Source of the DNA: Escherichia coli
GTDB lineage: Bacteria; Pseudomonadota; Gammaproteobacteria; Enterobacterales; Enterobacteriaceae
Assembly (NCBI RefSeq): GCF_003334815.1
Contig: NZ_QOWO01000005.1
Reading direction: 5' to 3' (one strand)
DNA: 64,000 nt
Shown here one piece after another: positions 6,663-39,482 of this stretch (position 1 is the first letter of the stretch; each line of letters starts with the position of its first letter). The position numbers were made by a program, and so were the translations under genes. Below the pieces are notes generated by a model. The model was not told where the DNA came from. It saw only the letters and a list, made by a program, of their open reading frames with translations, and did not search any database.

Positions 6663-7310
6663 TTATTCGTTAGTGGCAGGATTACGAAGCGTGGGGCACA
6701 GGAGATACATCTCCAGTAAGATGGCAACGTAATCGCGGGCTTCTTTTTTAAGATCAAAAGATTGCGGGGCAAAGAGCCAGTTTTCCATCAGGCCGGAAAT
6801 ATAGCCGCGCATAATAATTGCTGCGCGACGCGTCATTAAATCCGCAGGCAACATTTTCGCTTCAATACAATGTTTTAACGTTTGTTCTATACGGTCATAA
6901 CTTTCCAGACAGAGATTACGTTGTGCCTGTTGCACAACAGCCATTTCTCCGACAAATTCGCATTTGTGGAATATAATCTCCATCAATAATCGACGCCGTT
7001 CTTCTGTCACCGTGGATTCAAGAACATGAATTAATATCTCTCTTAATACTGAGAGTGGATCGCCAGGGAATTTTGCCTGATACTCAAGCTCTAGTTCACC
7101 AATATTGGATTCTGACAGTTCCCAGATCTCACTGAACAAATCCGACTTGTCTTTAAAATGCCAGTAGATTGCACCGCGCGTAACGCCAGCTGCTTTTGCA
7201 ATCTCGCCCAGCGAGGTGGATGATACCCCCTGCTGTGAGAAAAGACGTAGAGCCACATCGAGGATGTGTTGGCGCGTTTCTTGCGCTTCTTGTTTGGTTT
7301 TTCGTGCCAT
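6663..7310 (-). CDS. acrR: TetR-family repressor of acrAB
   Basis: ORF 6663..7310 (-), 215 aa; divergent from acrA; TetR-type HTH near N-terminus. Confidence 0.95.
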
Positions 7311-18818: not shown

Positions 18819-20105
18819 TTACGCGTTATAGGCATTCTCGCCGTGGCTGTTGACATCCAGCCCTTCTCGCTCCTGCTCTTCCGGTACACGCAGACCAACC
18901 GTCAGATCCGCCAATTTGTAGCCGATAAATGCCACAACACCGGACCAGACGATCGTAATGGCGATGCTTTCCAGCTGTACCAGCAACTGATGGCCCATCG
19001 TCACACCTTCAGCGAAGCCCACGCCGCCCAGCGAGCTGGCGGCAAAAATCCCGGTCATGATACAGCCGACAATGCCACAAACGCCGTGCACACCGAAGAC
19101 ATCGCAGGGATCATCCACCCGCAGCAAGCGTTTGAGCATGGTAACGCCCCACAAGCCCGCCAGACCAGCTACCACGCCGATAATCAACGCGCCGCCAACC
19201 CCAATGTAGCCGCAGGCTGGCGTCACGCCGACCAGACCGGCAATCGCGCCAGAACACGCCCCCAGCAGTGAAGGCTTACCACGCAGCGCCCATTCACCGA
19301 AGATCCAGCCAAGAATTGCCGCCGCCGTTGCGACCACAGTATTCACAAATGCCAGTGCCGCGATTTCATTCGCCGTGCCCGCTGACCCGGCGTTAAAGCC
19401 AAACCAACCGATATAGAGAATGGCAGTCCCGGTGAAGACCATCGGCAGGTTGTGCGGTTTAAACGCCTCTTTACCGAAGCCCACGCGTTTTCCTATCAGA
19501 TACGCGCCCACCAGACCGGCGATTGCGGCGTTAATGTGCACCACGGTGCCACCCGCGAAATCCAGCGCACCGTGAGAAGCCAGCAAACCACCGCCCCACA
19601 CCATATGCGCAATCGGAATGTAAGAGAGCGTCAGCCATACCACCACGAAAATCAACACAGCTGAGAAGCGGATTCGTTCCGCCAGCGCCCCAACTATCAA
19701 GCCGACGGTAATGCAGGCAAACGATCCCTGAAACGCCACGTGGATATACTGATAAATGCTGCCCATCACCGCCGTCAGTTCGATGTTTTTCAGCATCAAC
19801 CAGTTAATGTTGCCGAAGAAGTTGTTGCCCTCACCAAACGCCAGCGAGTAACCGTAAACCACCCAGAGAATACAGACCAGTGCAAATGTCACCGTCACCT
19901 GCGTCAGCATCGACAGCACGTTTTTGCCGCGAATCAACCCACCGTAAAACAGGGCAATCCCCGGAATAGTCATAAACAGCACCAGCGCAGTACAAATCAT
20001 CATAAACGCATTGTCGGCTTTATCGGCCACCGCAGGTGCAGCCATTACCAGTCCCGGAAGCATCGCCAGTGAAGCAAGCCCAGTTTTTATCGTCGCTATC
20101 TTCAT
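18819..20105 (-). CDS. amtB: ammonium transporter
   Basis: ORF 18819..20105 (-), 428 aa; signal peptide plus 11 TM helices typical of Amt. Confidence 0.96.
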   Translation of the reverse strand: MKIATIKTGLASLAMLPGLVMAAPAVADKADNAFMMICTALVLFMTIPGIALFYGGLIRGKNVLSMLTQVTVTFALVCILWVVYGYSLAFGEGNNFFGNINWLMLKNIELTAVMGSIYQYIHVAFQGSFACITVGLIVGALAERIRFSAVLIFVVVWLTLSYIPIAHMVWGGGLLASHGALDFAGGTVVHINAAIAGLVGAYLIGKRVGFGKEAFKPHNLPMVFTGTAILYIGWFGFNAGSAGTANEIAALAFVNTVVATAAAILGWIFGEWALRGKPSLLGACSGAIAGLVGVTPACGYIGVGGALIIGVVAGLAGLWGVTMLKRLLRVDDPCDVFGVHGVCGIVGCIMTGIFAASSLGGVGFAEGVTMGHQLLVQLESIAITIVWSGVVAFIGYKLADLTVGLRVPEEQEREGLDVNSHGENAYNA

Positions 20106-20134
20106 TTTTCGTTCCTGTTGCTGTGTGCCAGAGA

Positions 20135-20473
20135 TTACAGCGCCGCTTCGTCGGCTTCGCCGGTACGAATACGAATGACGCGTTGCAATTCAGCGACGAA
20201 GATTTTGCCGTCGCCAATTTTTCCGGTGTAAGCCGCCTTACTGACGATATCGATCACTTCATCGAGTTGGTCATCAGCAATCGCCACATCAATTTTTACT
20301 TTTGGCAGGAAATTGACGCTGTATTCCGCCCCCCGGTACAGCTCGGCATGCCCTTTCTGACGCCCGAAACCTTTCACTTCGGTGACGGTCAGGCCCTGAA
20401 TACCAATGGAAGATAACGCTTCACGAACGTCTTCCAGCTTGAATGGTTTGATTATCACGGTCACCAGCTTCAT
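20135..20473 (-). CDS. glnK: PII nitrogen regulatory protein GlnK
   Basis: ORF 20135..20611 (-); trimmed to MKLVTVIIKPFKLEDVREAL..., 112 aa; T-loop RGAEY present. Confidence 0.95.
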   Translation of the reverse strand: MKLVTVIIKPFKLEDVREALSSIGIQGLTVTEVKGFGRQKGHAELYRGAEYSVNFLPKVKIDVAIADDQLDEVIDIVSKAAYTGKIGDGKIFVAELQRVIRIRTGEADEAAL

Positions 20474-20525
20474 AGATCCCCTCCGGTCAGAATTCGGTAA
20501 TGGTTCTGCTACACGAAGAAGGTAT

Positions 20526-20541
20526 TGCAAGCGGTGTGCCA
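20526..20541 (-). promoter_or_regulatory. sigma54 (-24/-12) promoter for glnK-amtB
   Basis: Minus strand reads TGGCAC-accgc-TTGCA, matching the sigma54 consensus; lies about 50 bp upstream of the glnK start. Confidence 0.8.
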
Positions 20542-20593
20542 GAAATGAAAAACGAGAAAGAGAGCAGGAAGTTAAGAAGTTTGAAAATGAAAA

Positions 20594-20610
20594 CGCACTA
20601 TGACAGTGCA
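20594..20610. promoter_or_regulatory. candidate NtrC enhancer dyad upstream of the glnK promoter
   Basis: cGCACtatgacaGTGCa (GCAC-N7-GTGC) resembles the NtrC consensus TGCACCA-N3-TGGTGCA; about 60 bp upstream of the -24 element. Confidence 0.5.
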
Positions 20611-20653
20611 CAGTGCGTTACATTTTTGCACCAACGATGAAATATTGCGCTAT

Positions 20654-24200
<3,547 letters not shown>

Positions 24201-28710: not shown

Positions 28711-31156
<2,446 letters not shown>

Positions 31157-31828: not shown

Positions 31829-34183
31829 CTATTTTGCAGTCACAACCTGCATACCAGACGGTTCATTTTGCAGCGCCAGAGTCAGAACTTCCTCAATGCG
31901 CTTCACAGGATGAATGTCCAGATCGGCAATTACGTTGTCAGGAATCTCTTCCAGATCGCGTTTATTTTCGAACGGAATTAGCACTGTTTTAATCCCGCCG
32001 CGATGCGCTGCCAGGAGTTTTTCTTTCAAACCACCGATCGGCAGTACCTGACCACGCAGAGTGATCTCACCGGTCATTGCCACATCGGCACGAACCGGGT
32101 TACCGGTCAGGCAAGAAACCAGCGCGGTGCACATAGCAATACCGGCACTCGGACCATCTTTCGGCGTCGCACCTTCCGGTACGTGGACGTGGATGTCACG
32201 TTTTTCGTAAAAATCAGGGTTGATCCCCAGTTTTTCCGCACGCGCACGAACCACCGTTAACGCCGCCTGAATGGACTCCTGCATCACTTCGCCGAGCGAA
32301 CCGGTATAGGTCAGTTTGCCTTTACCCGGAACACATGCGGTTTCAATGGTCAGCAAGTCACCGCCCACTTCCGTCCACGCCAGACCGGTTACCTGACCGA
32401 CACGGTTTTCGTTATCCGCGCGACCATAGTCGAAACGCTGAACACCGAGATAGTCATGCAGGTTATCGCCGTTAATTTCGATATGTTTTAATGACTTATC
32501 GAGCAGTAACTGCTTAACCGCTTTGCGACACAGTTTGGAGATTTCACGCTCCAGACCACGCACGCCCGCCTCACGGGTGTAGTAACGAATAATGCCGATA
32601 ATGGCGCTATCGTCGACGGTCAGCTCACCTTTTTTCAGTGCATTACGTTCAATCTGCTTCGGCAGCAGGTGACGTTTGGCGATGTTCAGTTTTTCATCTT
32701 CGGTATAACCGGAGAGGCGAATCACTTCCATACGATCCAGCAGCGGTGCCGGAATGTTCATGGAGTTCGACGTCGCGACAAACATCACGTCGCTGAGATC
32801 GTAATCCACTTCCAGGTAGTGGTCGCTGAACGCTACGTTCTGCTCTGGATCCAGCACTTCAAGCAGTGCAGAGGCCGGATCGCCACGCATGTCAGAAGAC
32901 ATTTTGTCGATCTCATCGAGCAGGAACAGCGGGTTTTTCACGCCCACTTTCGCCATTTTCTGGATCAGTTTACCCGGCATAGAACCGATGTAAGTACGGC
33001 GGTGACCACGGATTTCCGCTTCATCACGCACGCCGCCCAGCGCCATACGGACATATTTACGCCCGGTGGCTTTGGCAATGGACTGACCAAGAGAGGTTTT
33101 ACCTACCCCCGGCGGCCCTACCAGGCAGAGGATCGGTCCCTTGATTTTGTTGACACGGCTTTGAACCGCAAGATACTCAAGGATTCGATCTTTCACGCGC
33201 TCCAGACCATAATGGTCGGTATCAAGGATTTCCTGCGCCTGACGCAGGTCTTTTTTGACCTTGCTACGCGCATTCCACGGCACCTGTACCATCCAGTCGA
33301 TATAACCACGCACTACGGTCGCTTCTGCCGACATCGGAGACATCATTTTCAGCTTCTGCAACTCTGCTTCCGCTTTCTCTTTTGCCTCTTTCGGCATCTT
33401 CGCCGCGTCGATTTTGCGCTTCAGGGCTTCGTTTTCGTCCGGCGCGTCGTCCATTTCACCGAGTTCTTTCTGAATAGCTTTCATTTGCTCGTTCAGATAG
33501 TACTCACGCTGGGATTTCTCCATCTGCTTTTTAACGCGGTTGCGAATGCGTTTCTCAACCTGCAGCAGATCGATTTCCGATTCCATCATTGCCATCAGAT
33601 ATTCCAGACGTTCGTTAACGTCGGACATCTCCAGAACAGACTGTTTGTCAGCCAGTTTCAGCGGCATATGTGCAGCAATGGTATCCGCCAGACGCGCCGG
33701 ATCGTCGATGCTATTCAGCGACGTCAGCACTTCTGGTGGGATTTTTTTGTTCAGCTTGATGTAGCCTTCGAACTGGCTGATTGCAGTACGCACCAGCACT
33801 TCCTGTTCCCGCTCATCAATGGTCGGCGACTCCAGATACTCCGCCTTCGCAGAAAAGTGTTCGCCATTGTCAGAGAGCGCAGAAATACGCGCGCGCTGTA
33901 ACCCCTCGACCAGCACTTTGACGGTGCCGTCAGGCAGTTTCAGCATCTGCAATATAGAGGCCACGGTCCCGACGGTGAAAAGATCGTTTACACCCGGCTC
34001 ATCCGTTGAAGCTTCTTTCTGCGCGACCAGCATAATTTTTTTATCATGGTCCATCGCCGCTTCCAGACAACGGATAGATTTTTCCCGCCCGACAAATAAG
34101 GGGATGACCATGTGCGGATAAACCACCACATCGCGCAGCGGCAATACGGGGATTTCAATGCGTTCAGAACGCTCAGGATTCAT
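31829..34183 (-). CDS. lon: ATP-dependent Lon protease
   Basis: ORF 31829..34228 (-); trimmed to [33 protein letters not shown]..., 784 aa; Walker [10 protein letters not shown], catalytic Ser region PKDGPSAG. Confidence 0.96.
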
Positions 34184-36394: not shown

Positions 36395-36639
36395 TTCCGT
36401 CTCCTGGATAAAATTGAAAAAACCTGCTGTACCGATTGTAACCTTATGGACGGATTATCAGCTAGTCCCTGTGTTATGGGTACGGCATCACCATATTTCA
36501 AGCATAACAATCTTTTGTTGTTACGCTAACACCGAAAGAGGCTTTTCGCACGGTTCCATGCAAAATTCATGACAAAAAAAAGCCCACCACCTGGCGGTGA
36601 CGGGCCTTTGTGCGAATTTAGCGCGTTATGCTGCGTAAA

Positions 36640-38903: not shown

Positions 38904-39482
38904 ATGTTCAAAAAAATCCTCTTCCCGTTAGTTGCTCTGTTTATGCTTGCAGGATGCGCAAAACCGCCAACAACTATTGAAGTTTCCCCGACGATTACAC
39001 TGCCACAGCAGGATCCAAGCCTGATGGGCGTCACCGTAAGCATTAATGGTGCCGATCAGCGTACCGATCAGGCGCTGGCAAAAGTCACCCGCGATAATCA
39101 AATCGTTACCCTGACCGCCTCCCGCGATCTGCGTTTCCTGCTGCAAGAAGTGCTGGAAAAACAGATGACCGCGCGTGGTTACATGGTTGGTCCGAATGGC
39201 CCGGTTAATCTGCAAATCATCGTTAGCCAACTGTATGCTGACGTGTCCCAGGGCAACGTGCGCTACAACATCGCGACCAAAGCGGATATCGCCATCATCG
39301 CTACCGCGCAGAATGGCAACAAAATGACCAAAAACTATCGTGCCAGCTACAACGTTGAAGGTGCGTTCCAGGCCTCCAACAAAAATATCGCCGATGCGGT
39401 TAACAGTGTGCTGACCGATACCATCGCTGATATGTCTCAGGACACCAGCATCCACGAATTCATCAAGCAGAACGCGCGTTAA
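38904..39482 (+). CDS. yajG: lipoprotein of unknown function
   Basis: ORF 38745..39482 (+); trimmed to MFKKILFPLVALFMLAGC (lipobox), 192 aa. Confidence 0.88.
   Translation: MFKKILFPLVALFMLAGCAKPPTTIEVSPTITLPQQDPSLMGVTVSINGADQRTDQALAKVTRDNQIVTLTASRDLRFLLQEVLEKQMTARGYMVGPNGPVNLQIIVSQLYADVSQGNVRYNIATKADIAIIATAQNGNKMTKNYRASYNVEGAFQASNKNIADAVNSVLTDTIADMSQDTSIHEFIKQNAR

Follow-up and report, generated by a model that had tools for sequence, protein, structure and literature searches.

The natural point of comparison for the nitrogen-regulated promoter of glnK is glnAp2, the promoter of the glnALG operon. Both promoters combine sigma54 with NtrC and use the same type of 17-bp dyad, for which the consensus TGCACCAnnnTGGTGCA has been quoted (PMC8743547), corresponding to TGCACCA-N3-TGGTGCA. 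Two high-affinity sites of glnAp2 were footprinted at -140 and -108 (PMC1865078); they are accompanied by low-affinity sites, and glnAp2 has an overlapping sigma70 promoter, glnAp1. Read from an E. coli genome, the two footprinted sites score 13/14 and 12/14 against the consensus, and low-affinity sites 3 and 4 score 9/14 and 8/14, respectively.

The glnK promoter is itself an already known, textbook feature. Published work describes glnKp as a simple promoter that depends exclusively on activation by NtrC, whose activity at glnKp is 400-fold higher under starvation. Deletion of glnG leaves the glnK mRNA hardly detectable, and complementation restores it. A CT-rich anti-Shine-Dalgarno insulator was first described in glnKp. 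Levy et al. (bioRxiv 10.1101/086108) demonstrated that glnKp silences a downstream reporter expressed by read-through, via CT-rich anti-Shine-Dalgarno motifs, and that the critical CT-rich region comprises 7 nt centred at -4. Those tests were made in synthetic circuits with an mCherry reporter, whereas here the same element is considered in its native mdlB-glnK context.

The window, that is, the whole 64-kb stretch of DNA that was analyzed, contains the E. coli mdlB-glnK-amtB locus. The 601 bases around the promoter are 100% identical to those of K-12 MG1655. This segment is single-copy in 5424 of 5426 complete E. coli genomes, and in 5073 of these the identity is at least 99%. The RefSeq annotation lists mdlA, mdlB, glnK, and amtB, as well as the convergent gene tesB; mdlB, glnK, and amtB are all located on the minus strand. 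Positions 20474-20653 are exactly the mdlB-glnK intergenic region of 180 bp, and mdlB is the co-oriented upstream gene in every Enterobacterales locus examined. A promoter scan of positions 20100-20900 found no sigma70-like promoter, and an Rfam scan of the same interval at E <= 1 gave no match. In the direction of transcription, the features are as follows.

20654..20656, minus strand: stop codon TGA of mdlB, the co-oriented gene directly upstream of glnK (ORF list and RefSeq).
20614..20633, minus strand: upstream block TGGTGCAAAAATGTAACGCA, candidate low-affinity NtrC site or sites.
20594..20610, minus strand: NtrC site 1, a candidate dyad (TGCACtgtcataGTGCg / TGCACTGTCATAGTGCG) with its centre at 20602, about -87 from the predicted start.
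20582..20619, minus strand: terminator-like hairpin AACGCACUGUG-CACUGU-CAUAGUGCGUU (20619..20592) with the U-rich tail UUCAUUUUCA (20591..20582), overlapping NtrC site 1.
20543..20581, minus strand: enhancer-promoter spacer rich in pyrimidines and T-tracts, with a length that varies between genera in steps of about 10.7 bp.
20526..20542, minus strand: sigma54 element CTGGCACACCGCTTGCA, an exact -24/-12 match and a published sigma54 ChIP-seq and gSELEX site.
20514..20522, minus strand: pyrimidine tract CCTTCTTCG, an anti-Shine-Dalgarno sequence at the predicted start, present in read-through RNA only.
20515 (U00096.2 471780), minus strand: predicted transcription start, 19 nt downstream of the motif centre by the convention of the ChIP-seq paper.
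20474..20514, minus strand: glnK 5' leader with the Shine-Dalgarno sequence GGAGGGG (20484..20478); GAATTCTGAC-GGAGGGGATCTATG is conserved.
20135..20473, minus strand: glnK coding sequence, 112 aa, PII family, with the ATG at 20473..20471 (ORF list and RefSeq).
20105..18819, minus strand: amtB, downstream of glnK (ORF list and RefSeq).

We assign a probability of about 95% to the reading that this spacer is glnKp, the single sigma54-dependent, NtrC-activated promoter of glnK-amtB. The sigma54 RNA polymerase would form a closed complex on the -24/-12 element (20542..20526). When nitrogen becomes limiting, phosphorylated NtrC would assemble on an upstream enhancer, made up of site 1 (centre 20602) with, probably, one or two neighbouring weaker sites in the block 20633..20614. 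NtrC would then loop over the short, helically phased spacer, contact the polymerase, and use ATP to open the promoter, with transcription starting near 20515. The parts of this mechanism that we infer are the bases contacted by NtrC, the function of the second block, and the precise position of the start. The NtrC/sigma54 control of glnK-amtB, which the sequence-only reading of this DNA had proposed, agrees with the published binding of both proteins and with the NtrC dependence of the glnK mRNA.

The promoter core reads TGGCAC-accgc-TTGCA at 20541..20526 on the minus strand. Its GG (20540-20539) and GC (20528-20527) doublets are exactly 10 bp apart within TGGCAC-N5-TTGCW, as required of a sigma54 promoter. 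The sequence-only reading had reported TGGCAC-N5-TTGCA at the same place (minus strand, 20526-20541), about 50 bp upstream of glnK. This is borne out, with 52 nt between the 3' edge of the element and the glnK ATG, and the exact pattern occurs only once in the 64-kb window, compared to 0.07 expected occurrences (7/100 shuffles). To score the element, a positional weight matrix was built in the leave-one-out manner from 134 other motif-bearing ChIP-seq sites of Bonocora et al. (PMC4591121). The glnK 17-mer scores 14.5 bits, which is close to the median of real sites (52nd percentile) and ranks fifth in the window. Since about 1.7 matches with this or a better score are expected in a random 64-kb sequence, the position of the element (intergenic, in the sense orientation, 52 nt before the ATG) counts as much as its score.

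The same expectation could suggest that the motifs are chance matches, or that the sigma54 site is one of many non-productive binding sites, the majority of sigma54 ChIP-seq sites being located within genes and lacking a known function (PMC4591121). We consider this the least probable of all explanations, with a negligible chance of being correct. The glnK site is intergenic and sense-oriented, it has 42 nt between the predicted start and the gene start, and it is conserved across Gammaproteobacteria; moreover, glnK expression is NtrC-dependent, and the published expression and binding data refute the explanation by chance.

The assignment of the spacer to glnKp is consistent with several genome-wide binding studies. 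The sigma54 ChIP-seq peak OS03 (PMC4591121) has the motif CTGGCACACCGCTTGCA with the centre at 471761 (U00096.2) and glnK as the downstream gene, and the RpoN gSELEX peak contains the same 17-mer. Coordinates were converted as U00096.2 genome = 492295 - window, which places 471761 at window position 20534. This mapping was validated by three other published sigma54 sites in the window (clpP, yajG, and acrR), all of which fall exactly on matrix matches. The ChIP-seq table of 2015 (PMC4591121) gives the glnK start as predicted, 42 nt from the ATG, with the EcoCyc status 'predicted'. The predicted start at 20515 is also consistent with the -4 numbering of the CT-rich region in Levy et al. (bioRxiv 10.1101/086108).

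For NtrC, ChIP-seq in nitrogen-starved cells yielded a 39.7-fold peak at 471741-471821 (window 20554..20474), and gSELEX yielded a peak in the mdlB-glnK spacer. The 80-bp ChIP-seq bin covers the sigma54 element and not the dyad. The NtrC peaks of glnH, rutA, and gltI likewise cover their sigma54 motifs, and hence the offset at glnK looks like an effect of limited resolution or of cross-linking through the loop, rather than a contradiction.

Several other sigma54 motifs were observed in the window. The three published ChIP-seq sites that served for validation are exact 17-mers: OS02 upstream of clpP (36559-36575, minus strand), IA04 in yajG (39039-39055, minus strand), and IA05 in acrR (7269-7285, plus strand). 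The top matrix match in the window is CTGGCATTATTAATGCT at 28932-28948 on the plus strand (16.8 bits, U00096.2 centre 463355). It lies antisense within a 123-aa minus-strand ORF (28763..29134) and is not among the 135 high-stringency ChIP-seq sites, although it may belong to the low-stringency ones of the same study.

Compared to the promoter core, the enhancer is less conspicuous. The letters of the dyad are TGCAC-tgtcata-GTGCG at 20610..20594 on the minus strand. It had been described earlier as GCAC-N7-GTGC at 20594-20610, about 60 bp further upstream than the sigma54 element, and this is a fair description, the separation being 68 bp centre-to-centre with a 52-nt gap edge to edge. The accompanying interpretation as an NtrC site is supported. 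The half-sites are invariant among 14 Enterobacteriaceae and the helical phase is kept, but the score of 10/14 taken alone is no better than chance: 31 window positions score equally well or better, and the probability of one match of at least 10/14 in the 160-nt upstream zone is P ~0.07. The bare pattern GCAC-N7-GTGC occurs twice in the window, compared to 1.9 expected occurrences. The second occurrence (33913..33927) was rejected as a chance match, given that the count equals the expectation and there is no sign of a sigma54 promoter at that position. Thus, site 1 is not above chance on the E. coli sequence alone, and becomes significant only via its conservation and position.

Calibration on glnAp2 places site 1 between the strong sites (12-13/14) and the weak sites (8-9/14) of that promoter. 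Judged by these scores, the glnK enhancer looks weak, in line with a published proposal in which a rise in NtrC has to precede the activation of glnK and nac. In glnKp, unlike glnAp2, the sites are weaker (10/14 and 9/14), the spacing of 68 bp is the shortest seen in the family, there is no sigma70-like promoter, and a co-oriented gene lies directly upstream. Published work holds that glnK comes on later, at a higher level of NtrC~P, and this architecture agrees with it.

The second of these sites belongs to the upstream block. It is the weak 17-mer TGCAAAAATGTAACGCA (20630..20614; 9/14), with the centre at 20622, 20 bp from site 1; the block also contains TGGTGCA (20633..20627), a perfect NtrC half-site. 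The 17-mer scores like the glnAp2 low-affinity sites 3 and 4 (9/14 and 8/14). Among 14 Enterobacteriaceae, the block is near-identical in E. coli, E. albertii, and three Citrobacter, is recognisable with substitutions in six further species, and is diverged in both Salmonella and in Klebsiella sp. BIGb0407. From its sequence, the block 20633..20614 probably represents one or two weaker NtrC sites beside site 1.

A candidate for a more distal site was considered as well. The 3' part of mdlB contains a palindrome that matches the NtrC consensus at 11/14 (GACACCATTCTGGTGCT, minus strand, 20796..20812), 270 bp upstream of the sigma54 motif. It was rejected, because in 14 Enterobacterales its synonymous positions drift freely (GAC/GAT, ACC/ACT/ACG, CTG/TTG); the palindrome is therefore explained by the conserved ADTILVL codons and not by selection for NtrC binding. 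Separately, the spacers of Enterobacter, Klebsiella, and Superficieibacter contain an extra NtrC-like 17-mer over the mdlB stop codon, for example TGCACCAAAATCAGGCG (10/14, d ~183), in loci L003-L006, L083, and L087 (alignment A3 columns 9-46, which correspond to the first 25 nt downstream of the stop). This 17-mer is not present in E. coli, Citrobacter, or Salmonella.

The comparative evidence comes from a GlnK scan of the genome collection, which produced 80 loci, with five more genera added through exact GlnK variants. At most gammaproteobacterial loci, the best sense-strand sigma54 match ahead of glnK reaches 14-19 bits, with an NtrC-like dyad (10-13/14) located 67-133 bp upstream of it; dyads of 11-13/14 precede glnK in many other Gammaproteobacteria. 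In the alignment of the mdlB-glnK spacers of 14 Enterobacteriaceae, the invariant columns are the dyad TGCAC/GTGC, the TTTT after the dyad, the promoter TGGCA/TTGC (14/14), the Shine-Dalgarno sequence, and the start codon. Between these blocks, the sequence diverges and the length changes. The glnK promoters of Salmonella, Klebsiella, Citrobacter, and Enterobacter share with that of E. coli the gene order mdlB-glnK-amtB, the sigma54 core, site 1, the T-run, and the leader with its Shine-Dalgarno sequence, and differ from it in the spacing, which is 78 to 122 bp instead of 68 bp and changes in steps of about 10.7 bp. The distances between site 1 and the sigma54 motif, measured centre-to-centre, are as follows.

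68 bp: E. coli and E. albertii.
78 bp: three Citrobacter.
89 bp: E. kobei.
98-99 bp: two Salmonella and Superficieibacter.
110-111 bp: K. pneumoniae and Klebsiella sp.
121-122 bp: three Enterobacter spp.

E. coli has the shortest spacing of the Enterobacteriaceae set (68 bp). The six length classes (68, 78, 89, 99, 110, and 122 bp) fit a 10.73-bp step with residuals of at most 1 bp; the ladder fit has R = 0.955, a value equalled by 0.18% of random sets (P ~0.002). For the 31 distinct distances from all loci, the Rayleigh test at a period of 10.5-10.7 yields P ~1e-4. The same ladder accommodates the glnAp2 sites footprinted at -140 and -108, for which d = 121 and 89, respectively. Judging from these distances, the helical phase between site 1 and the promoter is preserved. 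Short-range activation by NtrC depends on the face of the helix, and a 10.7-bp ladder is what this dependence predicts. Among the arguments from sequence, the phasing speaks most strongly for joint action of the dyad and this promoter.

Other changes of spacer architecture were observed in individual lineages. The spacers of C. koseri (L086) and C. werkmanii (L008) contain an insertion with the REP-like imperfect palindromes GCCTACGG...TAGGCCG and CGCCGCATCCGGCA. It is located after the mdlB stop codon and ahead of the enhancer (alignment A3 columns 15-85), and makes this part of the spacer longer, while the enhancer-promoter distance stays at 78 bp. In the glnK loci of Pseudomonas and Stutzerimonas (L016-L042), the sigma54 motif lies 160-210 nt upstream of the ATG, resulting in a long leader. 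The Pseudomonas-type loci have two NtrC-like dyads at d ~90 and ~123; they are separated by 33 bp, or three helical turns, as the sites of glnAp2 are. Dyad pairs with a separation of 13 bp occur at several other glnK loci.

Site 1 of E. coli also lies within a terminator-like structure. The terminator scan found a stem at 20619..20592 with 11 pairs (5 G-C) and a 6-nt loop, followed by the tail TTCATTTTCA and beginning 34 nt after the mdlB stop. One arm, AACGCACUGUG, lies upstream of site 1 and pairs with CAUAGUGCGUU, the right half of site 1. The fold of the 41-nt RNA has a minimum free energy of -17.2 kcal/mol (z = -5.0, with 0/200 shuffles as stable), and hairpin energies range from -14.4 to -17.2 kcal/mol. 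The hairpin is stable and contains G+C, and a U-tract follows it directly, downstream of the stop codon of co-oriented mdlB, as expected of an intrinsic terminator. Rho-independent terminators share with the spacer hairpin such a stem (here of 11 pairs, 5 of them G-C), the 6-nt loop, the U-rich tail, and the location after a stop codon. The spacer hairpin, which is predicted from sequence, differs from the usual ones in that its stem is derived from an activator binding site and its U-tract is interrupted (UUUUCAUUUUC).

The long hairpin is found in 11/14 Enterobacteriaceae, and the other 3/14 use the short palindrome only. In E. coli and most relatives, the spacer has no other terminator-like structure, and the hairpin overlaps site 1 in every case. 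The stem is paired in 87% of the cells of the 14-sequence alignment, compared to 25-62% in slid controls. One pair, formed between a base outside site 1 and a base within it, reads C-G in eight sequences and U-A in four. The covariation score exceeds those of all 500 shuffles (500/500), with two pairs changed on both sides, although for 14 related sequences this reflects few independent events, and relatedness alone can beat shuffles. The palindrome-only hairpin of site 1 showed no covariation.

The T-run follows the dyad in 14/14 Enterobacteriaceae. NtrC binding does not require it, because TTTT was not found beside the NtrC dyads of Yersinia, Rahnella, Acerihabitans, and Photorhabdus. The upstream arm is absent from S. 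enterica and K. pneumoniae, in which site 1 ends in the consensus A and scores 13/14 (the Salmonella form is TGCACCGTCATGGTGCA); thus, unlike E. coli, both have a near-consensus site 1, and Salmonella also lacks the upstream block. Another difference from E. coli is that K. pneumoniae (L083, ~620-650) has a separate canonical terminator, AAAGGGCCGC-TTT-GCGGCCTTTT (-14.4 kcal/mol), between the enhancer and the promoter (alignment A3 columns 229-250), ending 7 nt upstream of the -24 motif. Given this separate terminator, termination in the K. pneumoniae spacer appears to be maintained by other means.

The overlap raises the question whether the dyad is the mdlB terminator hairpin and nothing else, with NtrC acting elsewhere, for instance at the TGGTGCA block or at the mdlB palindrome (20796..20812). 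Such an explanation would account for a weak consensus match that sits in a good hairpin, and the 11/14 palindrome within mdlB would offer NtrC another target. We regard it as very improbable. Phased TGCAC-N7-GTGC dyads precede glnK in lineages without the T-run or the extended hairpin, the homologous site reaches 13/14 in Salmonella and K. pneumoniae, and the mdlB palindrome drifts at its synonymous positions, as expected for ADTILVL codons.

The preferred reading, NtrC acting from site 1 on glnKp, is compatible with an extension in which the E. coli-type enhancer is fused with the intrinsic terminator of mdlAB, and the anti-Shine-Dalgarno tract at -7..+2 additionally shields glnK-amtB from read-through. 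The same segment of about 28 bp would act as DNA (NtrC site 1 and the edge of the upstream block) and as RNA (the 11-bp hairpin and the U-tract), and mdlAB transcription would stop 34-70 nt after the mdlB stop. The extension is suggested by the scan match and the stability of the fold, by the location of the only terminator-like structure of most spacers over site 1, by a TTTT that is invariant in 14 species yet unneeded for NtrC binding elsewhere, and by stem covariation across the site 1 boundary. The species without the upstream arm fit the same pattern, with the consensus A at the end of site 1 and, in K. pneumoniae, the separate terminator. On the other hand, the U-tract is interrupted, the number of independent substitutions among the 14 related sequences is probably small, and the T-run might have a different purpose, namely DNA bending for looping. 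In Term-seq data from two papers, mdlB and glnK do not occur among the entries listed, which is absence of evidence only. On balance, we place the chance that this extension is correct somewhat below one half, and the same degree of caution applies to the site 1 segment as a putative intrinsic terminator of mdlAB.

A further step is more tentative still. The glnK enhancer of E. coli and most Enterobacteriaceae may be physically the same element as the mdlAB terminator, with a stem that consists of the right half of site 1 and a duplicated arm resembling its left half (AACGCAC). Selection for the RNA hairpin would then hold site 1 off the NtrC consensus (the terminal G and, in E. coli, the A at position 12), and this could be part of the reason why the enhancer of glnKp is weak and its activation late. 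With the anti-Shine-Dalgarno tract at +1 as the second, glnK-amtB would have two layers of insulation from upstream transcription.

The second layer was considered at the level of RNA folding. CCTTCTT at 20522..20516 is the counterpart of the 7-nt CT-rich region at -4 (Levy et al., bioRxiv 10.1101/086108), in agreement with a start at 20515. The native leader from +1 is unusually unstructured (z = +1.8). In the predicted fold of the read-through RNA, CUUCUUCG (20521..20514) pairs with CGGAGGGG (20485..20478), and the unpaired probability of the Shine-Dalgarno sequence changes from 0.50 in the native leader to 0.00, with shuffled composition-matched upstream sequence already giving 0.11 +/- 0.12. 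Occlusion of the Shine-Dalgarno sequence in read-through RNA is predicted in most species, varies among them, and is not distinguishable from that in composition-matched shuffles; the read-through fold overall is no more stable than shuffles (z = -0.6). The support for anti-Shine-Dalgarno insulation in the native context is thus modest, and it looks like an effect of pyrimidine-richness. In the same fold, CACCGCUU from the sigma54 spacer and -12 region (20531-20538) pairs with AAGCUGGUG in glnK codons 2-4 (20462-20470), extending the anti-Shine-Dalgarno helix.

In summary, glnKp is in standard use as a reporter of NtrC activity and as a component of synthetic sigma54 circuits, and its confirmation at this locus adds nothing new. 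What is added is a fuller anatomy of the promoter, the helical ladder, and a plausible, predicted overlap of the enhancer with a terminator. The 10.7-bp ladder provides a clean natural illustration of the short-range dependence on the face of the helix. If the enhancer does double as the terminator hairpin, this would explain why the glnK NtrC site departs from the consensus. In that case, changes in the NtrC site would also alter the insulation of glnK-amtB from upstream transcription, which would be relevant whenever glnKp is transplanted, trimmed, or mutated.
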